Under the pieces are notes generated by a model. The model saw nothing but the letters and a program-made list of their open reading frames with translations. It ran no database searches and was not told where the DNA came from. DNA of 64,000 nt from Tubulanus polymorphus. Its lineage: Eukaryota; Animalia; Nemertea. Location of the stretch: positions 14,726,485-14,790,484 of the forward strand of contig NC_134027.1 of NCBI RefSeq assembly GCF_964204645.1. Reading direction: 5' to 3'. This document shows, piece by piece, positions 11,015-48,409 of this stretch (positions within the stretch are counted from its first letter, which is position 1; each line of letters opens with the position of its first letter). The translations under genes and the position numbers were made by a program.

Positions 11015-12484
11015 TATAGCACCCCGATGTTCAGCGCTAAAAAGGGAGCTAGGGAACTAGATCTGAGGTAGAGCGCAAGCGAGGTACCTTAAAATGAAAG
11101 TAGAAACAGTTCCAATATAATATCCGTAAAACGACATTTATTTTTCAGATCAGGAAGCAGAATGTGTATAATATGATATGTGATTATAATAATATATGAT
11201 AGTGATTATGATAAGTAATAATATTAAAATGTAGTAAGGCCTATAATAAAGAATGATCAGCTTTAGAATTATTTACAACCGGTTGGTTTCACATTTCAGA
11301 CTATTCTTATACGTTTTAGAAATATCTATAGACAAATATAACCCGTGCACGGTTAGTACCACTAAATTTCTAAGACTTAAACTGACAATCGTTAATGTCC
11401 GAGAAGTACCTAGTTAAATCTATTTCACAGGACACTTCGTGATAGTTATCAGAGATATCCATTTCTAGCTGACGAATGCTAAATATAAAAAGTCTTAGAA
11501 TTGATAACTGTTTAATTACGATTTACACTAATGGACGAATATTGATAGTAATCTTAACTAATAATCACGGACCGGTGACTCGGCAGTTAAAGCCAGTCAG
11601 GTCATAAAAGATTCAGATTCTCAAGAGATAACAGAATTATTCCATAATACTAGCGGACAAGTGCTGAGTATACTGCTATCTAATTTGTAACATTTTGATT
11701 AGAAATTCAACATAAAGACCGATTTCAATCTAACTCCAAATGAAATACAATAATAAAATCATGTTTATAAAAATAGCTAGCTGACAAAGGCTAGGAAAGA
11801 ATAGACAAAAATATAGTAATATTGATAATAGATGTGTAACTATATAGGAATATTGTTGATTAATCTTATACGGCATGTAGATCTATGAGGTTTGAGCTAT
11901 ATACACATTCAAATACTCTAAAAGAAAAATACAAAATTTCTTACCTTAAAATGAAATTAGAAACAGTTTCTAAATATAATATAATATAAATATAAATATA
12001 ATATCCGTAAAACGACATTTATTTTTCAGATCAGGAAGCGGAATGTGTTGCCTTCCTGTCTGTTACTCATTTTATATATTTTGTTATAATGAGGGCGGAC
12101 CCAGGCTGATGATTGATCCCTCAGAGAAATACCCAATAAATTGACCCTTGATACAGCCAAAATCTCACACCTAGCAGGTTGGCACCTTAATGAGTTAATC
12201 AATGAAATAGCTTTTTGGCAGGCAAACAGTGAGATAATCGCCTGGGTAGGCAGCTGTCCAGCAGCTCGCCCAAAATCACTATCAAAACCAAAGTGGGTCT
12301 TATTTTATTTTTCGCAGGATGTTTGTACAAAGTTAACAACCTAGCCAATGGGTTGTTATTGTTATGCCAACTAAGAGCAGGCTCTTGTAACCATGCAGCA
12401 AACTCAGAAACTATGATGATTTCAAGTCAAAATCAAAGTATTTAGAAGAAAAAACTATTTTTCGAATATTAACTAGAAATTCAA
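11015..12484 (-). repeat. 3' LTR of the Gypsy element
   Basis: Near-identical to 18991-20428; similarity stops after agaaattca. Confidence 0.9.
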
Positions 12485-12987
12485 CAAGTAAACAAATCAG
12501 ACTCGATAGCGATGTAATGAATGTAGCGATATAATGAACCTCCAAGTTTGAACAGTGTTTCAGGGGGTTCATTTGGCAATAATGCCTAGTAATCAAACCC
12601 AAAGGCCTAAGCCTCAGCAGGTGGAGAGCTATGGTAAAAGGGTAGTTAGAATGGCGTCAATGCGCCTGAGACGCAACCAAAAGCGAGTCAAACCAAAAAA
12701 AAGAGAGGTGATACCGGTACTTGTCAACCCGATACTGCAGATGACCAAAAGAATGGACTGCCAGAAAAAGTGTCCTGAAGAGAAATGAAGATGAAAGGGA
12801 GAAGTGATTTTTGTCTACAGAAGAAAAGCCTTAAATTGGGAATTTGGCCAAAACTCCCTAGCACAGAAAGCTCCTATCCAAACCCCTGTAAACGCAAACA
12901 CCATGGATATTTGATGGAATGACACTTTTTCTTAAGTCCGTGACTGACAACTTTGAAACCATAAATAGGGCTGCGAAATCCGCTGGG

Positions 12988-15387
12988 CTAAAATCCCAAT
13001 TCGAAACTTCTATACCGATGGTCTATGGAAACAGCGTAATGGCTGTCGCCTTTTCCTTCCTCGAGTGTGCGTGTTCTATGAAATTCATTTCTCGCAAATT
13101 CAGTTATGTTCTCTGCTGGTTCCCATGTGCGCTCCTTGTAATTTCTCCACTTTACCAGGTATTCCTTTACACCATTTCGACGGCGTAATTTCAGTAATCG
13201 TTCTACTTCGTAGAAGCTCCTGTCATCTGGTGGCAAGCTTTGAGTATCCAGATCCGTAGGATCCTGGTCGTCCAGTACCGATGGTTCCTTATTTGTTGGT
13301 GGTGATCCTGGAATAAGACGTGGGTGTTCGGCACGATCGTGGAGTGGTTTCAGTCGCTTGGCGTTCACTGCTCCGGGATGTACTTCATCATCAGAGCACC
13401 TGCGAAGGCGATAAGTAAAATTTGGACCAAGTAGGGTGATGTAGTATGGTCCAAGGAATCTTGATTCCAGTTTCTTTGATTTACCCTTGCGTCGACGGTG
13501 GTTGCGCATCATTACCCGATCACCTAGTTTATATGGTGGTTCCTTTGCATGGTTCTTGTCATCGTAGGCTTTCTTGTTCTTATCTTGGAGAGCCTTCATG
13601 TTTTTCTCGGCTACCTTTTTCACTATCTCAAGATATTCCTTCATATTGGCGACATGGTCTGCTACCTTTCTGGGCAGACATCCTTTGGGAATGAGCGCTG
13701 TGTCAATAGGCAAGTTCATCTCTTTTGCAAATACTATATGGAATGGAGAAAAACCCGTGGCTTGAACGCTTGGAGTGGATCGTATAGCCATGAGCACAGT
13801 CGGCAGTATTTCGTGCCAATTGTCCTGATTGGTGTTGCCGTATGAACGCAATATCTGCGCAATAGTTCTATTCTGTCGTTCACAGGTGGCGTTGGTCATT
13901 GGATGGTAACTGCTTGTCATATGTCGGGTAACTTGGAACATTTCACAGACGGCGGCTACCAGCTTGAACATGAAGTTCTTCCCTCGGTCACTGATTAACG
14001 ATCTCGGTGCACCGTAGCGAGCAATAATTTCTCCAAATAAAACCTTGGCTACTTCCGGTGCGTCCTGTGTTTTCAATGGAAAAGCCTCAACCCAGCGTGA
14101 GTAGCTATCAACGAAGAGAAGAATATACTTATGGCCCTCCGTGGTGGGTGTTAAAGGTCCTAATATATCCATGTGCCATCTCACGAATGTGTCGGCAATT
14201 GCCATGTTAGTCAGAGGCGGCGGCCTTGCACCAGGAGCTTCTTTGTTTTCTTGGCAGGGTCCACAGGTCTTCACGTAGTCGTGTACATCCTGATTCATGG
14301 TCTTCCAATGATACTTCTGTAACAGAGCTTCATAGGTCTTGTCTTCACCTAAATGCCCTCCTCCAGCTGCTGAATCGTGGTAAGATGCAAGGAGGTCCAC
14401 TCTCAGCTCCGTGGGGACCACTACTTGGTTAACTGTTCTAAGATGCGGTTCCAAATTTCTTCCTCGTCTCTGGTACTCCCGAAATAAGATGTTGTTTTTC
14501 ATGTGATGCTGGCATGCTGCATGCGTTATTGCCCGTGCCATTTTCGGATCTATGATGGGCTTAGCATCCGGACAGCTGTGCTGTAGCTCGCTGATTTGAT
14601 CAAAGGAGTTTCTTACTGTTGCAGGCTTGGTGGCAAATACCTGAGCTACCTTATCATAGAGGAACTCATACTCAGTTTGTTCATTGTGGAAATCGGTGGA
14701 GACCAGGGAGACTAATTGTTCATTTACTCTACTGACGTTGCCGACCATAGATTCATCGTCCCAGGCAGCATCATCTTCATCACTGGAGGTCTGGACCTCA
14801 GTGTCACTGCCCTCGGTGCCAAGTGGAACTGGCGGTAATCTGGTCGATATATCTGTGTCATTTTTTTCACTTGCCTGTTCATGTCGCTCACTGATGATCA
14901 TTGTCTTACCGGGCTGATATTCATCTGAGGTGTTCCCTTCAGGGGCAGGAATGGTACATATATCTGTTGTTTCCGTCTCCCAGTCCGCCTCGATAGAGAG
15001 GTGATCAGTAACTCCAGATAGTTCATTCGGGATATCTGGTAGCCCTACAGGTTCCGTAGTACTATTTGGGCGTACTAAGGAAAGTATGAGTAACAGGAAT
15101 TGAAACATCTTGCTTCCTAGAAACCGTATCCCAGCACCTGACGATAAGATTGCCTCCCAGGCATGCTGCGTGTATGAATGTTTGACCACATTAACAATTT
15201 CATCTAGGGTAGGAAAAGCATCGCAGTCATCCTCCTCTTCAGTATCCTCATATTTTCGTCGGGACAGGCAATCTGCTGGTCCGTTATTTAACCCAGATCG
15301 CCACTTAGTCTTAAAATCGTATCCCTGAAGTTTTGAAGACCAACGTGCTACCCGACTATTCACATCTTTTGAATTCATCCATGCCAA
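12988..15387 (-). CDS. pol: Gypsy pol C-terminal part: end of RNase H, acidic linker, integrase (HHCC, DDE), chromodomain
   Basis: YHDSAAGGGHLG...CGPC zinc finger, WHMDILGP, LISDRG, YHPMTNATCERQNRT, FYEVERLLKLRRRNGVKEYLVKWRNYKERTWEP chromodomain. Confidence 0.92.
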   Translation of the reverse strand: MAWMNSKDVNSRVARWSSKLQGYDFKTKWRSGLNNGPADCLSRRKYEDTEEEDDCDAFPTLDEIVNVVKHSYTQHAWEAILSSGAGIRFLGSKMFQFLLLILSLVRPNSTTEPVGLPDIPNELSGVTDHLSIEADWETETTDICTIPAPEGNTSDEYQPGKTMIISERHEQASEKNDTDISTRLPPVPLGTEGSDTEVQTSSDEDDAAWDDESMVGNVSRVNEQLVSLVSTDFHNEQTEYEFLYDKVAQVFATKPATVRNSFDQISELQHSCPDAKPIIDPKMARAITHAACQHHMKNNILFREYQRRGRNLEPHLRTVNQVVVPTELRVDLLASYHDSAAGGGHLGEDKTYEALLQKYHWKTMNQDVHDYVKTCGPCQENKEAPGARPPPLTNMAIADTFVRWHMDILGPLTPTTEGHKYILLFVDSYSRWVEAFPLKTQDAPEVAKVLFGEIIARYGAPRSLISDRGKNFMFKLVAAVCEMFQVTRHMTSSYHPMTNATCERQNRTIAQILRSYGNTNQDNWHEILPTVLMAIRSTPSVQATGFSPFHIVFAKEMNLPIDTALIPKGCLPRKVADHVANMKEYLEIVKKVAEKNMKALQDKNKKAYDDKNHAKEPPYKLGDRVMMRNHRRRKGKSKKLESRFLGPYYITLLGPNFTYRLRRCSDDEVHPGAVNAKRLKPLHDRAEHPRLIPGSPPTNKEPSVLDDQDPTDLDTQSLPPDDRSFYEVERLLKLRRRNGVKEYLVKWRNYKERTWEPAENITEFARNEFHRTRTLEEGKGDSHYAVSIDHRYRSFELGF

Positions 15388-15435
15388 TGACTGGTGATCC
15401 GTGAAGACGGTAAACCTCTTGGGGATTAGATACTC

Positions 15436-15860
15436 TCAGAAGTTGTCTATCCCGGCGACAATGGCATAGCACTCCTTATCCCTAGTAGACCACTTCCTTT
15501 GTTGTTGAGATAGTGATTTGCCTCCATAACAAATAACACGGTCGTGACCTTCTTCGTCCAACTGAGACAAAACAAATCCCACGGCCGTATCACTAGTATC
15601 ACAAGACAGAAAAATTTCCTTGTTTGGGTCCAATACTGGTGGGGATGTAAGTGCAACTTTCAGTTTCTCAAACGCCTCATCACAGTCAGAAGTCCAATTA
15701 AACCGAGAATCCTTTCTCAACAAGAAATTGAATGGTGCAGTGATTTTAGCATAGTCTGGTACAAACCTACGGTAAAAGTTAGCTAAACCCAACAAGGATC
15801 GTACTTCTTTCTTGGTTTTTGGAGTGGGGAAATCTCGAATCGCCTCAGATTTACTAGGAT
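15436..15860 (-). pseudogene. pol: Gypsy pol RT thumb/RNase H segment, separated from its neighbours by stops or frameshifts
   Basis: LGLANFYRRFVPDYAKITAP; LSCDTSDTAVGFVLSQ; RDKECYAIV. Confidence 0.88.
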
Positions 15861-15864
15861 CCGC

Positions 15865-17694
15865 TTAAATACCGTCGCTGGTGAATATGAAGCCTGGATA
15901 AGGGACGCTATTGACTGCAAATTTACATTTGGACAACTTTAATGTCAGATTAGCCTGTCTCAAACGATCGAAAACCATCCGAAGATGTTGCAAATGTTCC
16001 TCAAAACTCCAAGAATATATTAAAACATCGTCGATATAAACCAGAGCAAACTTACAGTGAAAACCTTCGAGAACCTTATTCACAGTCAGTTGGAATGACA
16101 TGGGTGCATTTTGAAGACCAAAGGGCATGCGAGTAAACATATAGCTGCCATTTTGCGTCACAAAAGTGGTTTTCGGCATGCTATCGGGATGTAATGGAAT
16201 CTGCCAAAACCCAGAGTTCATGTCCAGATTGGTAAATATCTTAGCCTGCGCCTCGCCCACTGAATCAATGACGTCCGCAAAACGCGGTAACGGGAAATTG
16301 ATTGGTTTAGTAACGCTGTTCAGCGCCCTAAAGTCAATCGCAAACCGATAAGCACCATTGTGAACACCATTGGTCTTTTTCTTAACCATGACCACTGGTG
16401 AGCTCCATGGTGAAGACGAAGGAACAATCACTCCATTGTCCAACATTTCCTGTACCTGTCTGTCCTGTTCCTCGCGCACTGGCTGCGCTTGTCGATACGG
16501 TTGTTGCCGAATAGGAGGCGCATCACCTGTATCAATGTAATGAGATTGCAGAGTGGTGGCCCCTATGTCTTGAAGACTGGTTGCAAATCGATCCGAATAT
16601 TCATATAATAAGTTTCGGAGGCGTTCCTTTTGTTTATCATCCAAGTCTGAACCTTCCAGACTAAAATTTAAATCTGTCTTGGCTGGTTGGACCTTCGGTT
16701 TTTGAGCTGCGGTGTCGCGTTGTGTTGCATTATAACCATCACTTGACAGACTGATGGAAACTGCAGTCTCGTTGGGTGTGGCTGATGCAACTGACGGCGT
16801 TGATCCGTTATCCTTATGATCCTTGTTATCCTGAGACAACCCTGCATGACCTAGGGGACTGATAGCTATTCCAGTCTCGCTTGATAAAGCTGGTGCCTTC
16901 AGATAGCTAGTATCATTTGGAGTATCCTTGTCCGTATCCTCGGTAATCGGGTCTCCCACGGTACCCTCAATATCCATACCCAGTGCGACTACGGTGTTTT
17001 TGGGGAGAGATATTACAACATCTGTAGGATTTAGTATCCTATAAGCTGCACGTCCATTAAGAGGCCGTACAAGACAACGAGCACCAGCAATACTTGAGGG
17101 TGGAAGTCCCTGAGCTGGTTCTAACAGAAGATCTTCACCCTCAAGTTCGCCCTTGACCTTAACCGGGATGATTGACTCCGATTGTGGGGGAAGTTTGACA
17201 TGCTTAGCTGTCCTCGCTGTACAGACACTTGAATCCAGATGGAAAAGAAAAGCATCATCCATAATTGTGAAACATCGATCATGTACATAGATATTGACCC
17301 TATTTGCTTTCATGAAGTCCATTCCCAAGATAAGTGGATGCTGCAGCTTGGTAAAAACATGAAATTTTTGATCCACAGTTATAGAACTAAAAGTTATAGG
17401 AAGTACAATAGTGCCTAGAACCTCGTGCCGTTCTCCTCCAACACCGGCTACACTGTATATATCTGGAGTTTGATTGAGAGATTGATTAGCAAATGGTGTC
17501 CGTTTTAAGGTATTCAAATTTATGCAACTGATGGTTGCACCAGTGTCTATACTGTTCACTTTAACATGATCGATTTTGGCAAGAGTTGTATTTTTGACTA
17601 ATGGCACTGTTAAATTTACACTTATATCATTTCTTGACTTATCGCTATCCATCTGATTATCATTTGTTGGCTTATTTACAAGGGGCCTGTCCAA
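15865..17694 (-). CDS. pol: Gypsy pol N-terminal part: aspartic protease and reverse transcriptase
   Basis: IDTGATISC and ILGMDF protease motifs; RFAIDFRALN, LDMNSGFWQIPL, RMPFGLQNAP, VYIDDVLIYS. Confidence 0.93.
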   Translation of the reverse strand: MDRPLVNKPTNDNQMDSDKSRNDISVNLTVPLVKNTTLAKIDHVKVNSIDTGATISCINLNTLKRTPFANQSLNQTPDIYSVAGVGGERHEVLGTIVLPITFSSITVDQKFHVFTKLQHPLILGMDFMKANRVNIYVHDRCFTIMDDAFLFHLDSSVCTARTAKHVKLPPQSESIIPVKVKGELEGEDLLLEPAQGLPPSSIAGARCLVRPLNGRAAYRILNPTDVVISLPKNTVVALGMDIEGTVGDPITEDTDKDTPNDTSYLKAPALSSETGIAISPLGHAGLSQDNKDHKDNGSTPSVASATPNETAVSISLSSDGYNATQRDTAAQKPKVQPAKTDLNFSLEGSDLDDKQKERLRNLLYEYSDRFATSLQDIGATTLQSHYIDTGDAPPIRQQPYRQAQPVREEQDRQVQEMLDNGVIVPSSSPWSSPVVMVKKKTNGVHNGAYRFAIDFRALNSVTKPINFPLPRFADVIDSVGEAQAKIFTNLDMNSGFWQIPLHPDSMPKTTFVTQNGSYMFTRMPFGLQNAPMSFQLTVNKVLEGFHCKFALVYIDDVLIYSWSFEEHLQHLRMVFDRLRQANLTLKLSKCKFAVNSVPYPGFIFTSDGI

Positions 17695-18982
17695 TGTCGG
17701 GTGACTCTGAACAGGCGCAAACCTTCAATTCGAACTATTTCGATTCTGAGACCAATTTTGGAAATGACCTTGTTGTGGCGGCCCATGTTGAAATTGAGGT
17801 TGCCTGGAATCGATTTGGTTTTGATTTTGGAACTGGCTTTGTTGAGACAGCCCTTGATGATATTTTCTTGAATCATTTTGACCGTGAAATTGAAATTTTG
17901 ATTTCGAGATTGATAGCCATAGGGTGCCCTAGTACCACGCCTGTCAGATCGACAGACACTTTGAAAATGATTCGGTTTACCACAAGCCTTACATGTTTTA
18001 CCCTGTGCTGGACAGTAATCATAAGGAAAATGATTCTTACCACAGTTCCCACACGTTGGTTGTCTGTTATCGCGGTATGCCGGATGTACTGCATTGACGT
18101 CTGTGGTTGTCATCCCCATCATCATTTGAAACATAGTTTGTAGTTGGTTTTCTATTCGGTCGAATCGGTTATCATCGTTTGTGGTTTTAGCAACGGACAC
18201 TTCCTCCTGGACAGATCTCGTAGCTGCCTCGAACGTCATAGCGAAGTCTCGAAGTTCCGAAATGTTTGCGGGCTCCTTGCCCACAACGGCCATCTTTAAT
18301 TCCGGTCTAAGGCCATGAATTGCGATGCTCAATCTCGTCGAGTCGTTGAGTCCATTATCCACGGTCGTCTGCTCCACACGGAACAGATAGTCTCGGACGC
18401 ATTCTCCAGGATTCTGCCGTAAATTGAAAACGCGTTGATCCAGGAATTTAGATTGTTTCTGACCAAAATTGAAGTTCAAAGTCTTGACAATGGTTCCGTA
18501 TCAGCGATTTGTGCTGGCGATAATGCATAAATTGCATTCAAAGCATTGCCACTTAAACTGAATAACAACACCTCTCGTGCTACGTGCACGTCCCATCCAT
18601 GTATGGCGCAAGCTCGCCTCCATCGGTGGAGGTGGTCCCGAATGGAGCCAGTGCCATCAAACTTATCATTGAATGGCAGTTTTATGGATTGTCTCTGTCC
18701 GAGGCCAGTTGTTGGCAACGGATTTGGTTCTTGGTTTGGTACAGCTTGCCTGTGATCTGTAATTGACGTCTCTGGTGTCGTCTGCGGAGTATTTGCTATT
18801 ACCCGCATATCGATGAGAGCACCACCTGTCGCTATTTGGTCCTGCAGGTCCCTAATGCTGGTGACGCTTGGATTCTTGTCTCCGCTAGCGCTACTTGTTT
18901 TATCCTCCTTTCCCATGGTGGTTCTCCCTCTATTGTTGTAGTTAGTGGGTCTATGCGTCATTGATCTAGTGCCCGGGTCCAA
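17676..18982 (-). pseudogene. gag: Gypsy gag, frameshifted near 18476, with zinc knuckles
   Basis: KFDGTG...W, LRQNPGECVRDY major-homology-like region, CGNCGKNH and CKACGKPNHFQSVC knuckles. Confidence 0.8.
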
Positions 18983-18990
18983 CCAACAGC

Positions 18991-20531
18991 TATAGCACCC
19001 CGATATTCAGCGCTAAAAAGGGAGCTAGCGAACTAGATCTGAGGTAGAGCACAAGCGAGGTACCTTAAAATGAAAGTAGAAACAGTTCCAATATAATATC
19101 CGTAAAACGACATTTATTTTTCAGATCAGGAAGCAGAATGTGTATAATATGATATGTGATCATAATAATATATGATAGTGATTATGATAAGTAATAATAT
19201 TAAAACGTAGTAAGGCCTATAATTAAGAATGATCAGCTTTAGAATTATTTACAACCGGTTGGTTTCACATTTCAGACTATTCTTATACGTTTTAGAAATA
19301 TCTATAGACAAATATAACCCGTGCACGGTTAGTACCACTAAATTTCTTAGACTTAAACTGACTAACGTTAATGTCCGAGTAGTACATAGTTAAATCTATT
19401 TCACAGGACACTTCGTAATAGTTATCAGAGATATCCATTTCTAGCTGACGAATGCTAAATATAAAAAGTCTCAGAATTGACAACTCTTTAATTACGATTT
19501 ACACTAATGGACGAATATTGATAGTAATTAATAATCACGGACCGGTGACTCGGCAGTTAAAGCCAGTCAGGTCATAAAAGATTCAGATTCTCAAGAGATA
19601 ACAGAATTATTCCGTAATACTAGCGGACAAGTGCTGAGTATACTGCTATCTAATGTGTAACATTTTGATTAGAAATTCAACATAAAGACCGATTTCAATC
19701 TAACTCCAAATGAAATACAATAATAAAATAATGTTTATAAAAATAGCTAGCGGACAAAGGCTAGGAAAGAATAGACAAAAATATAGTAATATTGATAATA
19801 GATGTGTACTATATAGGAATATTGTTGATTAATCTTATACGGCATGTAGATCTATGAGGTTTGAGCTAGATACACATTCAAATACTCTAAAAGAAAAATA
19901 CAAAATTTCTTACCTTAAAATGAAAGTAGAAACAGTTCCAATATAATATCCGTAAAACGACATTTATTTTTCAGATCAGGAAGCAGAATGTGTTGCCTTC
20001 CTGTCTGTAACTCATTTTATATATTTTGTTATAATGAGGGCGGACCCAGGCTGATGATTGATCCCTCTGAGAAATACCCAATAAATTGACCCTTGACACA
20101 GCCAAAATCTCACACCTGGCAGGTTGGCACCTTAATGAGTTAATCAATGAAATAGCTTTTTGGCAGGCAAACAGTGAGATAATCGACTGGGTAGGCAGCT
20201 GTCCAGCAGCTCGCCCAAAATCACTATCAACACCAAAGTGGGTCTTATTTTATTTTTTGCAGGATGTTTGTACAAAGTTAACAACCTAGCTAATGGGTTG
20301 TTATTGTTATGCCATCTAAGAGCAGGCTCTTGTAACCATGCAGCAAACACAGAAACTATGATGATTTCAAGTCAAAATCAAAGTATTTAGAAGAAAAAAC
20401 TATTTTTCGAATATTAACAAGAAATTCAGAATAATCATGATATTACGATCCGAGGGATACCAAATAAGCCTGGGTACCTTGACTACAAAATAAAACATTA
20501 AAAAGGTGGCTTAAGGGGTTAAACTACTATA
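18991..20531 (-). repeat. 5' LTR of the Gypsy element
   Basis: Starts tatagcaccccga like 11015; ends ctactata next to the ccgt TSD. Confidence 0.88.
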
Positions 20532-21227: not shown

Positions 21228-22965
21228 AGTAAATAGGATAATAGGGGTTCATACCAAAAGGTCGAAGGGTCGAGCTCATAAAAAATGAAAAAATAAATTC
21301 TCGCACGCTCGAATATATTGAAAATTGAGTTTTTATTATTCGAAATCTATATTTGATCTTATTTTTCTAGATTATGCTAACACTTTACTCACACTTTTTA
21401 AATATGAATATTTTAAGAGTAAAAAGGATAATAGGGGTTCATATCAAAGGTTGAAGGGGCGAGTGAGTAAAAAATGAAAAATAAATTCGAGCGAGCGAGA
21501 ATTTATTTTTTCATTTTTTATGAGCTCGACCCTTCGACTTTTGGTATGAACCCCTATTATCCTACGGAGTTGTCATATCGCTGAAAGACGGAATCGCGGA
21601 ATTTTCCAAAAACGCGGAATTTCTTCATTTTTACTTTAAATAGTAAACGGGTTTTCCCACGGGGATACCCACTGTCGGACAGGGCACCGGACCGATCGAT
21701 GCAACGAGTTAGGTTCGAATCCCATTATTTGCAGGCAATTTTATATGGAATTATTATATTACGATACCGTTGACCGGGCCAACTTCGGTTTTCGTAGCTA
21801 GTCGACTAGTGGTCGGAACTAATAACCGAACACACTATAGTTCAGTCACAACGTATTTCACAGTGTCGGCCATCTTTAACCTGGGTTCGAACTGTAGCGA
21901 CCGTGCTCAATTGCGTGGTCGACCATTTCCGGACCATAGTTCCGACTAATGGACATTCGGTTTCATGTAGTTCGACTATAGTCGACTAACTCCGATAACC
22001 GAAGTTGGCCCAGGCTGCCACCTGTAGAAGAAGTCAGAATCAAGTGGGGTGAAAGAGACCAGGCACCTAATGTCTATTTCTACTAGGCAAACTTCGGTTA
22101 TCGAAGTTCATCGACTTTTTGAGAACTTCAGAAACGAATATTATCAGATAAATATTGAGCACGTTCGCGGTGTCGGACCGTAGTTGTAGATGGTTGCAAA
22201 CATGAAATCCTACGACCAAACAAGTACCGGTTCAAATTCCTTTGAAATTATTACAATTTTACGGCCGTCCAGTACCGGTACCAATAAGATCTTTTTGATC
22301 CAAATAATCAGCATAGGAACATATATGTTATAGCAGTCACAAAGTAAACATTAAAAAAAACGAAACCATTTTATAATCTTTCATATCATTTAATTCTAAA
22401 AGATAAACCACATTCGCTTATAACAACAATGTAGACACACAACACGCATGAACAATCCTAAGCCAGAATTAAATAAACATAATGTCTATTTATTTTCGTC
22501 TGACATCGATCCAGTTCCACAGTTGTGAGTTAACTCTGAGTTACTTAGAATCAATTCATTTCCAATGTTTTAAATCCAGAGACCAGAGTCAAATCTTAAC
22601 TCGGAACTGAGTCCAGGAGAATGACCCATGGTGTCATCACAAATCCTACGTTTACGTACCATCGATTTGTATTCCTTCAGTTAATGCAGCGATACTCTGT
22701 ATCACTGAATTCGCAAAGCACGTATTGCCTAGGTTCTACATTATTTGGAACAGTATCGTTAAGTTGTTGACTGGCGATATAATAAATTATCAAATACTAA
22801 TTCCCGGTGTTGAAAACCTGGGTCCGATGCCCTGTCCGACAGTGGGTATCCCCGTGGGAAAACCCGTTTACTATTTATAGTCAAAAATGAAGAAATTCCG
22901 CGTTTTTGGAAAATTCCGCGATTCCGTCTTTCCGCGATATGACAACACCGATTATCCTATTTACT
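21228..22965. mobile_element. Non-autonomous Polinton-end mini-element (343 bp once the nested insertion is removed)
   Basis: AGTaaataggataatagggg...attatcctatttACT termini, 6-bp TSD gtggag (21222-21227, 22966-22971); ends clearly related to the TIR at 43052. Confidence 0.85.
21565..22950. mobile_element. Non-autonomous DNA transposon with ~125-bp TIRs and 9-bp TSD (MULE-like), nested in the mini-Polinton end
   Basis: cggagttgtcatatcgc...gcgatatgacaacaccg; TSD attatccta at 21556-21564 and 22951-22959. Confidence 0.9.
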
Positions 22966-33800: not shown

Positions 33801-36800
33801 TATTCACACATTTTTATATGGACCACTTGTAGCCGCTGATGAAATTCACGCCGGCCCTACACAGATCGTAGATAGCTTCGTCATTCCACCAGCATCCCCA
33901 CGTCAGGGTCTGACTTTTATATCAAACTTCTGTATCGTGTATACATCCGCCATTCAACCGAATAATCCGATTTACTTATCATTTCTATTTATGCCTGCCG
34001 CTACTGATATAATCATACATCCTGTACTACTACAATACGTCTTCTAATGATATTCAATGCAATATAACATTTCGACGTTCAAATAGAGGTCATTATATTA
34101 TCACAGGAAGCCATTCTACATCTAAGTCTACTATATTTTGCCAAATAGCTTGTATGTGTACACATAGACCTGTGACGTTTTACACATCGATTTACGGTTG
34201 TCGTTTGTAAAATGACGCTGAATTGTTTAGGTTTCACAATGCTAACGTTTTATAAGGCGCAAAAAACCAGTGCCTGGGGTTGCCAAGATTACCAGGCATA
34301 CATACAAGCAGTATAAGCTTCATTCATAGGCATTTAGATAGTACATGGGGTACACGTTAACCCACTGTGAACGGACGACACAGTTTGTATCCACACAAAG
34401 AATGCATACTGTGTCCTCCGGTCACAGTTAGCTTGAATAGAGTTTTAAGTTCGGTAGTAATGTTTCAGATCAAAGGTTGTGAGGTCGAGGTCCGCTCAAC
34501 CTCTCTCCCTTAAATCTAGAAACGTAATCATACAATTAATTTATATAATATCATATTTTGATTCTACAATATATTAATTCTAATATATATAATAATGTAA
34601 CATTTCTAATTATTATATTACAAATAAATATTACAAAAATTAAAAAATAATGTAATTACGAATATAGATATAATTTGGTATAATAGAATGATTCAATTTT
34701 AATAGAAAATATGTTTAATAAATGGAGAGCAATAACAAACAATCAAAATGATATAAACTTTATCAAAAGGATAAAAGATTACTGTTGCTAAAAGTAGATT
34801 ATGAATGTAAGAACTAATTAATACTAGATGAAATGTATTTATTCACAGGTATTGAAATAATTCCAACTGAATATGGAAATATATTTGTAGCACATTTAGA
34901 ATATGAAGGTTTAACAAATAAATATAACTTGTTTACATATTTATCAGATAGATTTAACAGATTATCAAAGATATTGATAATTTAAAATCAGGTATATTTT
35001 ATTCAATTTATCAAGGTGTCGCATAACAGAGGCGACAGTAGTCAACCAGGATCAGAAAGCATGTCATCGATTTAACTGTTACATTTATTAGCGGATTGCA
35101 CAACACACCATATAACATATAGCACATAGGACACTGCGTAACGTTAACTACAAAATACAAAGCGTATATGTATTGAATAATTTGCTAACGGAATCAAGTG
35201 AATCTGGAAAACCAATTTGATACTGCGTAAATATAATGACATTTGACTTACAACTTTGTAGACTAGCTGCGACTCTATGAAATCCCTTGGGCGAATGCCC
35301 AGAGAAAATCCTAGAGGAGAACAATATACAGCTGGGAACTGTGAACGTGTAATAGTGGTTAAGAACCGAAATAGCTAGTTCCAAATTAAATTGATTTAAT
35401 GAATACAAAAAATAATCCTCTTGTGCATTTCTGATACAACCTATACAACATGAAATCCAAATCCACATCAAATCTATATACATTGAAACATTAGACACGC
35501 TGAAATAAACATACACAATAAACAAAGACAAAAATATTTAACACCACACATAAAGACAAAAAGGATTCAATCGCAAACACCAGGAAAAGATGAAAAAGGG
35601 CATCATATTATAGATTTTGAATGAAAAATATGTGAAATAAATAAATGGTAGAATTAAAAGAATATAGATTATATATCGATTCTAGGGAACTTTCAAATCA
35701 AAGATAATAAAAATCTCATCATCTAATAATACAATTAGACAAACAATACAAACAGAGAGTTTAAGAATTGTGACGATATACAATTAGTGAATGTAACTTC
35801 TAATTCTTTTCATCGTATATGGAATAAAACTCTTAAAATGGATTTTATTTGATTTCTTTTTGGGAACTTGATAAATAGAATCACATATTTCTAAAATCAG
35901 GATTATATAATTTAGAAACATAAACGCAAGAAATTAATAGAAAAGCTCAGTTAAAAATGGGTGGTGCTGTCGGATTCGGAATTAAATCTATTAAAAGTGA
36001 TACTACTAATATAATTTGGATAAAGTTAGCTTATGATGATCAAATACATTTATGGTAAAAAAAAAACCTTTAGCCAAAATTTTGGGAATAATTCTACATA
36101 CAATTTTTGCTAATATAAGTGCTACACCAAATTTACTAATCTTAAACATTTCTATAATTATTGCAATTAAATAGCCCCAAAAACATATGAATTGATAGCA
36201 TTTCCTTGTATATTAACTATTCTACCATTAAAAATGTTAAAGAATTTGGAACACAAATTATATATCAATAATCAGAATGTGATTATAAACCTTGTAATAA
36301 TTTCAGGTTAGAAATAAGAAATCGAAATGGATACTTAATTAATTTAAATGATTTTCCTGTAATTTATGAATTAGTTACAAGATGTAAAACATTTTTCATA
36401 ATATAAATATGAATATTACTGTAGGACCGAGTATTTGTATTGGATTTGATTTCAAAAGAAAAACAGCCAAAAGTTAAACTCGATAATGTTATCATATTTT
36501 CTAAAAGTAGATCATTTGATAATGAAACAACGATAGATAAATACACTTATATTGTAGAAGAAATAATTGTTTTCATCAAAAAATCTTTAGAATATTATGA
36601 TTTAAATAAAAAATAATTATTGATGATATCAAAGAAAATAATTGAAATATATGATAATCACAAAATCGTAATGTTATAGATATTTAAATAGTTTTAACTT
36701 AACAACAGCTTGAGCTACCCTGAGTCTGCCCTAAGTCTCTTGTTCCTTTTCCCAAATCGTTTAGGATTTGCGATATGGACCTTTTGTACTATGTTTTGTT

Positions 36801-42235: not shown

Positions 42236-43051
42236 GTAAGTTCATACAAAAATGAGCATCGCAATTCCAGCACCAGAGCGTGAATTGCGGTTCAAATGGT
42301 CTGTATCAGTTCATTTGAATGAACTTGGAATTGAAATCATAGAAATCCAAATACATGTGTTATATTCAAGGTCCATTCATTTTCGGGAAAAAACCTGGTA
42401 GATCCTCATAGAAATACCTATTGTTAAAGTAGTGTTAGCGGGTAACGTAGGCTCCAAACAGAAGAAAAATTCATTGCAAGGTACTTAATAGAAAAGTTGT
42501 GGTATTTATCCTTAGGGTGGTATTTAAGAAGAACATGTGATTATAACCGATGTATGTATTGCTGTTATGGGGTGAAATTCAACTTAAAAATAAATATCAT
42601 AGGGTTTAAATGTGTTTAAAATCAGAACCATGTGTTTAAAATCAGAAGCAATGAGATTAATTGGGATAAATTCTCAGCGGTAGAATACGTATTTCTAGAG
42701 CAGTGGAACGTTAGACCTACTCATGACTGAAACCCGTATAGGTAAGTTATGTGATCGTGCGGGAACGCCTTTACTAAAGTTAAAACCATTTCATGATGAC
42801 ACGAAACATTAAACACAACTAGGCTACCATCCATGATATCACAAATCAAAAAAGATCATTTTTATATTCAATTTTACCAGAGTTGTTTATTGGAGGAAAA
42901 TATGATCGTTAAGTACGCTGAGACCAATCATGTTGTATCATCAATAAGTTGACTGACAGTATTATTATTAAGATTCCATCGGTTCGGTCATATTCTGAGA
43001 TACGTTTTCGCTTTAAGATGCCCTACCCGCCTGGTGCGCACTTACGAGGTG

Positions 43052-43430
43052 AGTAATAGGGATAATAGGCTTTCAAGCCAAAGGTAGAACGGTCGAGTTC
43101 ATTAAAAACAAAACATTAAAAGTAATCTAAAACTATAATATATTTTCATAACCATGTGTATTTTATATTATAACTAAATATTTATTCTAAGATATCAATA
43201 ATTTAAAAAGCATATAATCAAATATATTTTAATAATAATAATTATTCTATTATTCAACTGAAATACACACGGTTATGAAAATATATTATAGTTTTAAATT
43301 ACTTTTAATATTTGTTTTTAATGAACACGACCATTCAACCTTTAACCTGAAAGCCTATTATCCCTATTACTCTTAAAATATTCATATAAATGAATAACAT
43401 TTAAATTGACAGATTATTCAATATAAAAGT
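43052..43430. repeat. Left TIR, containing an internal palindrome (arms 43052-43163 and 43261-43371)
   Basis: Reverse complement of 59762-60140; agtaatagggataataggctttca recurs inverted as tgaaagcctattatccctattact ending at 43371. Confidence 0.95.
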
Positions 43431-43461
43431 GTAAGCTCTTATAGAATAGATATATAAATAG

Positions 43462-44073
43462 TTATTTTATAAACTTATATTCATAGGGAAATTGTAGTCT
43501 CAGTAATATTTTTGAACCTTTATTATTCTTTAATTTATTCATATATTCATCATGTAATTCAGTAGGTATAATTTGATTTTCTTCCAATGATTGTTGCATA
43601 GATTTTTTATCTTTGTTATAAAATAAAACTAGAAATCTTATATTCCCCCTAAAGTCTTTAACAATTGAATTATATTTTTGATTTAAAACTCATGTTGTTA
43701 TCCCAAAATGTCTCCCAGAGAAAGCTAAATAACATAACTCACTTTCTCTAACTTTTGAATCATGTAAATTAGCGCAATCATCTACAATGAATAATGTATT
43801 TGATCCTTTATAAGTATCAATTGCTATTTTAAAACAATTATCTAAATTTTCTTTTACTGTTTTAGGGTCTAATATAATAAACTTTTTCATCTTAACTATA
43901 TCTCTATTATATGTTTTATTCATTTCATAAGTAGGGCAGAATAATATTATATTATCAAAATGATTCTTATAAATAGTTTCTAACAAATCAAATATGAAAT
44001 GTGTTTTACCACAGTTTGTTACACCAGTAACTAACATATTATGCGGTTCAAATATAAATAAATCTTTATTCAT
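43462..44073 (-). pseudogene. A32/FtsK-like genome-packaging ATPase with an in-frame stop at 43690-43692
   Basis: Walker A GVTNCGKT, Walker B LFIVDD, SGRH motif; frame continues past TGA as VLNQKYNSIVKDFRGNI to a stop at 43462. Confidence 0.88.
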
Positions 44074-45196
44074 TTATTCTTTTAATTTTACTAGATAAAA
44101 TCCATTCATTAAATTTATCATCATATCCTTTATATTTCACCAAAGAATACTTTTTTCCTTTAAGAGTTTTTGATTTCAATACTTTTTCTATTTTGTATTC
44201 TATTTCATCTGGATTTGGTACAAGTGATAATTCTTGTTCATAGAAATAACCTAATATTTCTTCATCTTTTAGATCTTCTAGTTTATAAACAAAAGGTTTA
44301 GTTAATATTATCTTTTTAATCTTGAATATTTCTTCAGTAAAATTTGGAGTATAACCTTTATAAAATGTTTTTCTATATTTAGATATTCTTACGTGTTGTC
44401 CAATTTTGAATCTAGGTTCACCAAAATCATGTGTAACAAACGCGCCATATAAATTATTCCAAACTATTTCCGAATTATCTTCTTTTCTAGCTTGTATAGG
44501 TTTCATATTTATAGAACTATGTTTAGAATTATTATAACCTTTCACTAAATCATCTAATATATTTATAGACTCATCGATATATTTATATGTTTCATTAGCA
44601 GTAAAATATTTCCACATTCTAGTTTTCAATGTTTTATTAAATCTTTCTATAATAGATGCTTTTTTATCTGAGTGTGTTGAAAAATAATCTACATCGTTAT
44701 CAGATAATAGTTTTTTGAAATGTTTGTTATAAAATTCCTTACCTTCATCAAATTGTATCTTATCTGGAATAGCTTCTTTAAATATAGATTTAAAAGCATT
44801 TGTCACTTCTTTTCCAGTTTTATTTTTGATTGGAATTGACCATGCGTATCTACTGAATATGTCTATAACATTCAGTATCCAGAAATATCCTTTGTTGTGT
44901 TCTTCTAAGTTCTTCATGTCAATTAAATCTGCTTGCCATTGTTGATCGATATATGAAACCATAACTTTTCTTGTTAAATAAGTTTTATCCATTTTCTTGT
45001 GGATTTGATATGTTGGTTGATTTTGTAACCATGATTTCAATTCACTATATTTTATATCACCATGTGGGTGCCGTACGGCACCATCACCATTTTCCTTATC
45101 AGATTTAATTTTATTCCATAATTCTGTAACGTTAGAATATGATACTTCACTTTCTGGATTATAATATAAATCTCTTAAATATTGTTCTTTTTTCAT
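44066..45196 (-). CDS. Retroviral-type (c-int) integrase with C-terminal chromo-like domain
   Basis: WQADLIDM, IDIFSRYAW, IQFDEGKEF, ASIIERFNKTLK; YKIEKVLK...LVKYKGYDDKFNEW. Confidence 0.95.
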   Translation of the reverse strand: MKKEQYLRDLYYNPESEVSYSNVTELWNKIKSDKENGDGAVRHPHGDIKYSELKSWLQNQPTYQIHKKMDKTYLTRKVMVSYIDQQWQADLIDMKNLEEHNKGYFWILNVIDIFSRYAWSIPIKNKTGKEVTNAFKSIFKEAIPDKIQFDEGKEFYNKHFKKLLSDNDVDYFSTHSDKKASIIERFNKTLKTRMWKYFTANETYKYIDESINILDDLVKGYNNSKHSSINMKPIQARKEDNSEIVWNNLYGAFVTHDFGEPRFKIGQHVRISKYRKTFYKGYTPNFTEEIFKIKKIILTKPFVYKLEDLKDEEILGYFYEQELSLVPNPDEIEYKIEKVLKSKTLKGKKYSLVKYKGYDDKFNEWILSSKIKRINE

Positions 45197-45202
45197 CTTA
45201 TT

Positions 45203-45553
45203 TTAATCCATTAATAATAATTTAGATTTAGTTTCAATGACTTTATGATTTGACTTATTTTCTGGTATGATAGGTTTATTGTCATTGGAATCATCTTTAT
45301 CATCAGATTTGAATTTTGATTTATATATTACACCGGATAATATAATAACTGTTACTAATCCAATTGTAATATATAATTTATAATTACTTCCAGCATTAGA
45401 AGAATTAGATGGATTATTATTTGAATCAATATCAGGTGATTCATTTATATCAGTTAATTTCTTTTTCTTAGCTTTTTTTAATTCTGCAGATCATTTACCT
45501 AATTCTCTTGCCCATATAATTTGTTTCTCGGATCTAGCCTTTTTCTTAACTCC
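45203..45553 (-). pseudogene. Disrupted small single-pass membrane protein
   Basis: KARSEKQIIWARELGK*SAELKK...YKLYITIGLVTVIILSGVIYK hydrophobic stretch; internal stop; boundaries approximate. Confidence 0.5.
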
Positions 45554-45554
45554 A

Positions 45555-46163
45555 TCACTCATTTATTTTAGTTAATTTTTGTTCTGATTCATTTTCTGTT
45601 TCGACGTTTGGTTGTAGTACAGCGTCATCTGTTTCGTTCTTACCTGATTTATATTCCATAGGCTTGATGTTCGAAAACGTAATGACGCCAGTAGAAATTA
45701 ATGTCATAACCGATCCTAATTGAAATGAAGCATAGCCGACCCATTTTTGTAATTCAGTCATAACTAAATAGTCATTTTTCAAATCACTATATAATTTATT
45801 TTCATCATCAATTGGTATTAACTGGTTACATAATTTTGAATAACATTTGACAATACCATCTGAAATAGAATCATTTATTCGGGATAATCTTGCTTCTTCA
45901 TAAATCTTAAAATATTTTATTACTTTATCTGGTTTCATAGCATCTAATTCTTGAAAAGTAATAGTCTTAGTTAAAAACTCTTTAGTTTTTCCACCGGCAA
46001 TCAATAGTTCTAGATGATGCTTACAATATAAATAGTATTCATAATCTATATTACAATTAACTTGAGCACAATTAGTTACAACTGTATCTTTATTATCACT
46101 TATACCCAAATCATCTAATGTTTTTTCAATATCAATACTATTCTTATTAGATTTCTTTGACAT
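45555..46163 (-). CDS. Uncharacterised Polinton protein, 202 aa, with a hydrophobic segment near the C-terminus
   Basis: Long ORF, same strand and codon bias as its neighbours, T7-N8-TAAATG start. Confidence 0.7.
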   Translation of the reverse strand: MSKKSNKNSIDIEKTLDDLGISDNKDTVVTNCAQVNCNIDYEYYLYCKHHLELLIAGGKTKEFLTKTITFQELDAMKPDKVIKYFKIYEEARLSRINDSISDGIVKCYSKLCNQLIPIDDENKLYSDLKNDYLVMTELQKWVGYASFQLGSVMTLISTGVITFSNIKPMEYKSGKNETDDAVLQPNVETENESEQKLTKINE

Positions 46164-46572
46164 TTATATTAGAGAAAAAAAGCAAAAAAAATGTTATAAA
46201 TATTCTTCAAATGATACTAGAGTTAAAGAAGTCTAGTATTGATACTAGCTATTTGAATTTAAAGAATTTCTATTTGAATCTATTCAAAATATTAAGTATT
46301 CTCTTTTGAAAAGAAAGTATTAAAAATATAATAGAATTCACTAGCTAGTTGAAGTTATTGTTTTTTTATTATATTTTATTTAAATTAGGATTTAGATTAT
46401 CTCACTACTATTGTTTATCTATAGGAGCAGTAATTATAACTGTCCAGATAAGTCATTTCGGATTCTCGATAATAAATCCTCAAACTGAAAATAAATTCAA
46501 AGAAACGACTGGTGGAAATACTATTTCATAAACACACATATATTTTATTCTACAATCATTATCGATTTCCAC

Positions 46573-47298
46573 ATTCCAAGCCGCTCGGCAGCCGAGCGGT
46601 AAGGTATGCGTGTAATGCAGGAATCAATAAAGTATAATACAACATCTGTCACTGTGTGTAACATTAACAACAGCTGAATGACGCAATTGAAATTCCGACA
46701 AACGTAATGCATTGGAAGCCTATACAGTATGGCTAAACTGCTACAGTCTCATGAGTTGAAATATCCATAATTTCTGATTCCACATCCATCTATCTTCACT
46801 TTCTTGATTCAATGGCCTTCATTTTGTTATCTAAAAGATAAATATCTAACGTAGAATAAAACTAACTTGAAGTTGTAGTTGTAAAATATTAATTACAACA
46901 CTTAAACATGACCATTTTGTGGCGCATCTTACCAGGATAAGTTTTACATGTTTAGCGTTTTCCAACGCCTTAATAAGAACAAAAACAGTACTTACATTTA
47001 TAACTGTAAACTCCTAAAATTGTGTTTATAGAGAGAATATCCTAAACGTTCCTATGCTTATGTGCTGCGCGTTTATAACTGGCAGTTATTCACTAGCTAA
47101 ACACTGTCTGTGCAACAGATGTTACTTTGTAATATAATTGATTAATCCTTTTCAACTGAAATAGCACATTCGATCAATATTCAAATGAGATACGCCCTAT
47201 TCAACTGAATATGAAATACGGCACAGATGTTTTTGTAAACAACCTAATACAATTACATACAGGCGGTTTGACATATATCGAGAGTAACCGGTTTTCTA
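46573..47298 (+). mobile_element. Probable Helentron-type non-autonomous insertion within the Polinton
   Basis: GC-richer island; 5' hairpin ccgctcggc-a-gccgagcgg; 3' aggcggttt...aaccggtt-ttcta end; boundaries approximate. Confidence 0.45.
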
Positions 47299-47303
47299 AG
47301 CGT

Positions 47304-47957
47304 TTAAGCTTCAACGTATTTTTCATTATGTGTTGAATTCCATAATTCAACAAATGTCTTTGCTTTATCCAGTTGATCTAAATATAACTGTATATCTAGT
47401 TTATTAGATTTAATTATGTTTTCCTTCTTTTCTAAAGGTCTTAAATTTCTCCAGTTCCAGATTAGCTTCTTATTACAATCATCACTCATGTCAAATTTAG
47501 ATATTGGTAACACGTGATCAATATGGTAATAATCCCCATAATTATCTATATTCATTTTATCATCGAATTGAAATATAATCCATGATTTGAGAAATTCATC
47601 TGAACAACCCAATAGATTAGATAGTGTTTCTGAATGTGTTTCTTTGTTGAATAATTGTGTTAATCTAGATCTTAAGCATTGATTCAATCTAAAATTAAGA
47701 TCTGTTTTGTATCTTTCTCTCATATATTCTGCCATATAATAATTATAATAATCTATATTATCTTCTCGGTATTGTTTGGTATATAGTTTAAAACAAGTTT
47801 TACAGCAATATTGAAAACCATCTTTGCTAATCTTACGCTTACTAAATTCTGTTATAGCTAATTTATCTAATTCACATTTAGAACACTTCTTGTAGTATAT
47901 GTTTATAACGCCAGTGTTATTTGTAATATTTATAGTTTGTGGTTGTTCTGGTTCCAT
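47304..47957 (-). CDS. HNH/endonuclease VII-like nuclease with N-terminal zinc ribbon
   Basis: KKCSKC...CCKTC; YHIDHVLPIS...WNWRNLRPLEKKENIIKSNK, a signature seen in phage and large DNA virus HNH nucleases. Confidence 0.85.
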   Translation of the reverse strand: MEPEQPQTINITNNTGVINIYYKKCSKCELDKLAITEFSKRKISKDGFQYCCKTCFKLYTKQYREDNIDYYNYYMAEYMRERYKTDLNFRLNQCLRSRLTQLFNKETHSETLSNLLGCSDEFLKSWIIFQFDDKMNIDNYGDYYHIDHVLPISKFDMSDDCNKKLIWNWRNLRPLEKKENIIKSNKLDIQLYLDQLDKAKTFVELWNSTHNEKYVEA

Positions 47958-48024
47958 TTATTATACATATTTTTTTACTAAATTGATTTTAGAAGTTATT
48001 CATTTATATGTTATTCATGAATAC

Positions 48025-48385
48025 CTATGTATTAGATACCCTATTAGATACCCTATTAGATACCCTAATACCTGATACCCTATTAGATACCTTAAATACT
48101 TAAAACCCCCTTTTTTAAAATAAATATTATTTATACAATTTTCAACCAATTTATTTTTATTTTTTCAACTAATATATGAATAAGTTTGAAAATAATAAAG
48201 GTTATTTATTATTACTGAGGTTTCAATTTCCATATGAATATCAGTTTATAAAATAAGATATTTTATGTATTAGATTGTATTAGATTGTATTAGATATGTA
48301 TTAGATACGTATTAGATACCTTAAATACTTAAAACCCCCTTTTTTATTTACTATTATTTTATACAATTTTCAACCAATATTATTA
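48025..48385. repeat. Duplicated intergenic block with (attagatacc)-type microrepeats
   Basis: tattagataccttaaatacttaaaaccccctttttt...tatacaattttcaaccaat at ~48080-48150 and ~48310-48380, each preceded by short repeats. Confidence 0.8.
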
Positions 48386-48409
48386 TTTGAGTTAAATATA
48401 ATTAATAAC

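Follow-up and report, generated by a model that had tools for sequence, protein, structure and literature searches.

Each end of a Polinton/Maverick element in the 64,000-nucleotide stretch of Tubulanus polymorphus DNA analysed here (the window) holds, on its inner side, a second and inverted copy of the terminal sequence, which is therefore present four times per element (outer and inner copies at both ends). Where the arms of the resulting hairpins differ, the strand whose 3' end is the element terminus is left predominantly with G·T pairs, and A·C mismatches are absent from its stems. The same polarity occurs in a second family in the window, the arms co-vary in genomic reads, and other inverted repeats nearby show no such bias. 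Folding of the 3'-terminal strand, as DNA or as RNA, has therefore probably been under selection; the polarity itself is demonstrated for two families, in one host only. Such a signature, carried in cis, tells which strand is single-stranded and folded, and its presence in a high-copy family makes the problem of first-round priming testable.

The AT-rich element (43052..60140, 17,089 bp) is a Polinton/Maverick on the basis of its terminal inverted repeats (TIRs) with AG...CT ends, a 6-bp target-site duplication (GAGGTG on the + strand at 43046..43051 and 60141..60146), an integrase, a packaging ATPase and pPolB. The TIRs (43052-43433 and 59759-60140) are 382 nt each and 98% complementary. The large ORFs, all of them on the - strand and directed toward the left TIR, include a 127-aa A32-like packaging ATPase ORF (43690..44073; PF04665, E 7.9e-8), a retroviral-type integrase with a chromodomain (44066..45196; PF00665, E 2.3e-10, and PF00385), a conserved 352-aa ORF (49273..50331) that has 1687 unnamed homologs and no Pfam match and is, by inference, probably the major capsid protein, and a pPolB frame (55071..57635; PF03175, E 7.6e-12). 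The last comprises a terminal-protein-like and vOTU-like N-terminal part and an endonuclease VII/HNH-like insert. Genes are interrupted in the window copy: the pPolB frame stops early, and a GC-richer insert of ~1.5 kb (57636..59119) splits it from its zinc-finger-bearing N-terminal part (59120..59653, - strand), which is contiguous with the remainder in a relative, L005. Those homologs of the integrase and capsid-like proteins that have names include animal ones. A Pfam scan of 13 ORFs gave no match to a double jelly-roll capsid or a maturation protease, nor to the Rep/NS1 HUH nickase family. The 217-aa ORF at 47304-47957 contains what we take to be an HNH-like motif; an HNH-type Pfam match is absent from it.

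Short AT-rich intergenic repeats recur inside the element (43462-43547, 48171-48256, 47949-48009, 59606-59667 and 48081-48346), several of them immediately upstream of ORFs, and may be shared promoter or terminator motifs. The element is flanked by LTR and MITE-type repeats. Elsewhere in the window, an LTR retrotransposon (11015-20239) has LTRs of ~1.25 kb that are 96-98% alike and encodes a protease, a reverse transcriptase and a chromodomain integrase; a decayed fragment of a related Polinton (34695-36690) lies in the opposite orientation to 53393-54867, with which it shares ~70% identity.

Within each TIR, positions 1-112 (p1-112) pair with 210-320 around a 97-nt AT-rich loop to give a 111-bp stem, as described in the earlier note on this DNA, which had reported a ~320-nt hairpin in each TIR with the terminus in four copies. 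At the left end, where the - strand is the 3'-terminal strand, the outer arm (43052..43163) is followed by the loop (43164..43260), the inner inverted copy (43261..43371, - strand) and a 62-nt tail (43372..43433), of which the 18 nt adjoining the inner copy are common to both families in the window. At the right end, where the + strand is 3'-terminal, the order is tail (59759..59820), inner inverted copy (59821..59931, + strand), loop (59932..60028) and an outer arm (60029..60140, + strand) finishing at the 3' terminus. Folding of both strands, a check that the earlier note had suggested, gave z scores of about -21 against shuffled sequence for each, with the 3'-terminal strand the more stable (-104.9 against -98.2 kcal/mol); in the predicted fold, base pairing extends to the last base of the element, leaving its 3'-OH paired. 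Some 600-700 reads per side depart from the loop at 43211-43215 and 59977-59981 with different letters and in high agreement with each other, which implies that the loop is longer in many copies and that 97 nt is not the family norm. Part of the tail beside the inner copy (59788-59820) is itself an imperfect palindrome, ending in the 18 shared bases, and may be a promoter or a site of nicking or protein binding.

On the 3'-terminal strand, the 111 pairs of the right stem include 6 G·T, 1 C·T and one 1-nt bulge, with no A·C. The claim that six arm differences at this end all give G·T pairs is thus correct in its counts, although it omitted the transversion and the bulge, and the polarity is reversed at p113, the first pair beyond the stem. 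The left stem has 7 G·T and 2 T·T on its 3'-terminal strand, the same pattern as was claimed for it; however, five of these seven G·T pairs are at the right end's sites and two are particular to the left TIR, so that the left end largely duplicates the evidence of the right. Taken alone, six of six G·T at the right end gives p=0.031, and the case for selection on the fold draws on more than this, including a control in which five other inverted repeats in the window show no polarity (9 G·T, 8 A·C). When sites are counted once across families and reads, 10 point in one direction and one (p113) in the other (p=0.012). Two of the six right-end differences, p35 and p39, are at CpG, as had been pointed out with the suggestion of plain deamination; however, CpG decay in duplex DNA is equally likely to yield TpG and CpA, sets no direction and thus cannot account for the polarity.

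The second family is represented by a non-autonomous mini-element (21228..22965, 6-bp duplication GTGGAG). Its left end has an outer arm only; its right end has an inner copy (21418-21491), a loop of ~10 nt and an outer arm that is interrupted by a MITE (21565-22950, 9-bp duplication), the arms being ~70 bp. The 64 aligned pairs include, on the 3'-terminal strand, 5 G·T and 3 G·A with no A·C or C·T, and one A·A-type mismatch lies outside them at p7. Over the first 60 columns, seven family-diagnostic states are common to the inner and outer arms, whereas p27 and p35 have C in the outer arm and T in the inner arm in both families; the arms thus evolve in concert yet retain certain differences. 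The arms also differ C/T at p47 in the mini-element, and a 1-nt difference in arm length is found in both families. It had been noted before that the mini-element shows some of the same C>T changes, which holds for p27 and p35, although it does so as a diverged second family with its own arm and loop lengths. The hairpin has been retained with loops as different as ~10 nt (mini-element) and 97 nt (17.1-kb element), and all three hairpin ends in the window have the same arm orientation. The tip of the mini-element hairpin (21490-21500) has GAGC repeats, which we presume to resemble the AAV Rep-binding element, probably by chance.

Raw genomic reads (run X6, of which about 12/100 was used; 10,015 and 7,708 reads aligned) cover the TIR at 1,200- to 3,000-fold depth, which indicates a high-copy family. 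Read frequencies are unphased and mix families within p1-60, and the variants are the best 40 of 82. With these limits, paired sites change together in the inner and outer arms at p11 (67/54%), p16 (55/50%), p77 (29/21%, a transversion) and p104 (21/20%). At p108 the frequencies (26/54%) imply that at least 28% of copies have T·G, a wobble step between T-A and C-G. At p47, 90% of outer-arm reads differ from the window copy with no inner change among the variants listed, giving G·T, and p26 (19/38%) points in the same direction. At p50 an outer change in 28%, with none in the inner arm among those listed, would at face value be A·C; we attribute it, without proof, to mini-like families. As both arms change at p11, this site was rejected as an additional G·T site.

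The reads also bear on orientation. Host junctions are found at the outer end (1147 reads in one alignment, 1458+298 in another), whereas the inner boundary is absent from the six largest loose ends and the drop in depth across it is 3.7%. Inner-copy host junctions therefore make up at most about 4% among integrated copies, and both flop isomers and solo hairpin units are rare among them, although a flop isomer could be hidden if integration takes only one form. Three reads connect 60140 to 59788 and may represent a bridge junction or mis-assigned inner-arm reads.

To place these ends in a wider context, we examined 95 integrase loci (80 of 344 metagenome hits, 14 from genomes and 1 viral), of which four passed a terminal-hairpin screen (L009, L059, L071 and L095); this fraction gives no estimate of frequency since a recognisable end is present only in L071 and most contigs stop short of one. 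L071 is a Polinton with pPolB, ATPase and an integrase 40% identical to that of the window, and its end (ACTACT) has a 39-bp stem with the last six bases unpaired, no G·T, 1 C·T and 1 T·T. L009 (3 G·T, 4 A·C) and L095 (7 and 8) have uncertain ends and no polarity. Tabulation of mismatches across copies and families thus extends the polarity to the mini-element but not to these three distant loci. L059 was set aside, its arms being oriented the other way; downstream of its Polinton-type integrase, short repeats make up a 740-nt inverted structure (1733-2476) whose two strands differ by -60 kcal/mol when folded as RNA. In a two-ended element on contig C47 of genome G001, the TIRs consist of tandem repeats and form no hairpin (score 24, against 144). 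Polinton-type integrase matches in 14 bacterial MAG contigs (L082-L095) probably reflect eukaryotic contamination. In searches of viral contigs, the integrase and capsid-like queries gave 0, 1 and 0 relatives; the terminal DNA pattern had no matches in viral or prokaryote contigs, a 17-base TIR-tail pattern had 32 viral loci, each with no more than a short TIR match, and the phage collection gave no match.

The pPolB of the family bears on how the hairpin might be used. Its N-terminal part was modelled from the relative L005 (75% identical to the window copy; mean pLDDT 70, 10 sequences). The best structural matches are Y-family polymerases, including an isolated little-finger/PAD domain (probability 1.0; E 1.3e-3 to 6e-3, short of 0.001), which is the match reported for Polinton terminal-protein domains (PMC11071308), and the vOTU-like part has an invariant Cys217 and His315. 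On this model the family's pPolB is predicted to retain a terminal-protein domain, and a priming hairpin would work alongside protein priming, not instead of it as the earlier note had allowed. Nor do we retain the proposal that the endonuclease VII-like domain in pPolB (PF02945, E 1.7e-5) resolves cruciforms: by sequence it fits the HNH-type insertion known in pPolB2 (PMC10748475), interpreted as homing-nuclease invasion (PMC10748475, PMC11071308), and the hairpin-bearing L071 lacks an endonuclease VII-like match.

We tentatively favour a cycle in which the 3'-terminal strand folds back and primes its own DNA synthesis and only the outer copy is cut or integrated, in the manner of the left-end hairpin of minute virus of mice (MVM). 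The hairpin, its polarity, the co-variation of its arms and the single orientation among integrated copies are the observed parts of this model; neither hairpin-closed nor dimer forms were seen. A displaced or excised single strand would snap back at its 3' end, and extension of the paired 3' end by a polymerase would give a duplex closed at one end, in a round that uses no terminal protein. Protein-primed copying from the open end would then give a dimer joined through one inner-loop-outer unit; this bridge would be opened at the outer copy only, such that orientation never flips, and the partner lacking the unit could be restored by panhandle copying via the 62-nt TIR tail. Fixed differences between the inner and outer copies would restrict cutting and integration to the outer one, G·T being perhaps the least costly means of making the inner copy distinct as a duplex site yet able to pair when single-stranded.

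By analogy with the phi29 system, it is biochemically plausible that the paired 3' end could prime synthesis: in phi29, a 3' end that is paired and recessed is described as a good primer, and a displaced-strand 5' overhang weakens protein-primed initiation and origin use (PMC4150772). On that behaviour, the default fate of the fold described here would be extension. In the MVM dimer bridge a 1-nt asymmetry renders one arm inactive (PMC1185569). A cycle that uses one arm asymmetrically is consistent with the polarity and with the differences fixed between the arms, and also with the single orientation and the TIR tail, whereas symmetric terminal resolution would swap the arms, make flop ends and cancel the polarity. 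The element proteins yielded no candidate for a nuclease specific for the outer end. Nucleases of the VSR family nick at T·G mismatches. A VSR domain is reported in some marine pPolB2 proteins (PMC10748475).

The main rival to fold-back priming, which we consider unlikely, is that the hairpin acts as RNA, with read-through transcripts folding into a 110-bp stem that serves in termination or as a Dicer substrate or decoy. The - strand ORFs point at the left TIR, and there it is the - strand that is compatible with G·U pairing; the hairpin on the right TIR could be explained by homogenisation of the TIRs. The advantage of the 3'-terminal strand is about -20 to -28 kcal/mol as RNA, i.e. ~3-fold larger than as DNA (-6.5 to -9.1 kcal/mol), and conserved G·U and G·A pairs are typical of RNA stems. 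However, the interval from the last ORF to the inner arm holds two A(A/T)TAAA signals, the hairpin has no Rfam match at E <= 1, and the stem finishes exactly at the last base of the element, which an RNA role does not need.

It is improbable, in our view, that the fold acts merely as a local mini-panhandle, restoring a duplex origin or shielding the 3' end for protein-primed initiation on the displaced strand, with the 3' end left unextended. Panhandles are the standing model for such a step (PMC11886824), the single orientation would need no nuclease, and a predicted terminal protein is retained; phi29, moreover, prefers a duplex origin with six unpaired terminal bases (PMC4150772), the state in which L071 is found. 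Yet the same phi29 work has recessed paired 3' ends extended and origin use lowered by displaced-strand 5' overhangs, and here the overhang would be the whole genome and the stem is paired to its last base.

It is similarly improbable that the hairpin has no function, being an old copy-back duplication whose arms are kept alike by conversion and whose polarity reflects either deamination biased to one strand or a repair process that eliminates A·C but lets G·T pass. C>T and A>G mutation biased to one strand would always produce G·T on that strand, both transitions specific to the left TIR do likewise, two sites are CpG, and 64 reads that connect the inner arm to outer-type sequence at p59 are consistent with conversion. 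We nevertheless prefer selection over mutation, since the three transversions of the mini-element yield G·A and not C·T on the same strand and since strand displacement should keep the 5'-terminal strand single for longest, from which the opposite polarity would be expected. Besides the lack of direction in CpG decay, the persistence of identical arm differences in two families amid shared changes, and the retention of hairpins with such different loops, also speak against a structure without function. Symmetric, flip-flop resolution of the parvovirus or poxvirus type, with the endonuclease VII-like domain resolving the cruciform and protein priming replaced, is very improbable: although the stem is paired to its last base and the PF02945 match exists, one orientation prevails in the three window hairpin ends and in the reads, both strands would need to fold and the polarity would cancel, a terminal-protein fold is predicted in pPolB, HNH insertions there have the precedents cited above, L071 has a hairpin without the domain, and the scanned ORFs include no Rep/HUH nickase.

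More speculative than fold-back priming itself, and on balance doubtful, is its fullest version, a hybrid protein-primed and hairpin-primed cycle in an animal Polinton lineage in which the conserved G·T wobbles act as a code that leaves the inner copy able to pair when single-stranded but spares it, as a duplex, from cutting and integration. If true, it would join two end strategies in one replicon, give a protein-primed dsDNA virus-transposon an asymmetric telomere like that of MVM, and explain how an excised Polinton starts its first round without terminal protein. Excision and the start of replication in Polintons are at present models only, as drawn in bioRxiv 10.64898/2026.07.28.741278.

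With other Polintons, as described in PMC10748475 and PMC11071308 (pPolB2-like), the element shares a size of 13-25 kb, TIRs of 100-1,500 bp, a 5-8-bp duplication, and an integrase, ATPase and pPolB with a TP-vOTU front end and an inserted nuclease domain. It is set apart by the inverted terminal copy deeper in each TIR, whose mismatches are polarised by strand, the element on G001:C47 being without a hairpin. The word 'hairpin' does not occur in the available text of PMC10748475 and PMC8502044, and we found no earlier description, in open-access full text, of pPolB Polintons whose ends hold inner terminal copies with strand-polarised wobbles. That palindromic TIRs prime as hairpins has already been proposed for protist virophages and PLVs: those of Halocafeteria have palindromes in their TIRs beside the target duplication, put forward as hairpin primers (bioRxiv 10.64898/2026.07.28.741278). 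These are tight, 52-nt palindromes in elements of a protist host with mostly non-pPolB replicases, whereas the arms described here are 70-110 bp with a loop and accompany a pPolB with a predicted terminal protein; by comparison with that preprint's section on the palindromes, wobble polarity and arm co-variation are reported only here. The left-end hairpin of MVM (PMC1185569) is alike in having a fixed arm asymmetry and in the use of one arm via asymmetric resolution, as proposed here, but MVM, an ssDNA virus, has an NS1 nickase and primes exclusively by hairpin, whereas in the window element no Rep was found, the two ends are alike and the element integrates. In the panhandle model for adenovirus and PRD1 (PMC11886824), a duplex end is restored to the displaced strand when its inverted repeats pair end to end over the whole genome, and the TIRs of bidnaviruses are stated not to form hairpins (PMC4061559). 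Unlike these systems, the ends of the window element pair locally, within 320 nt, leaving a recessed 3' end.
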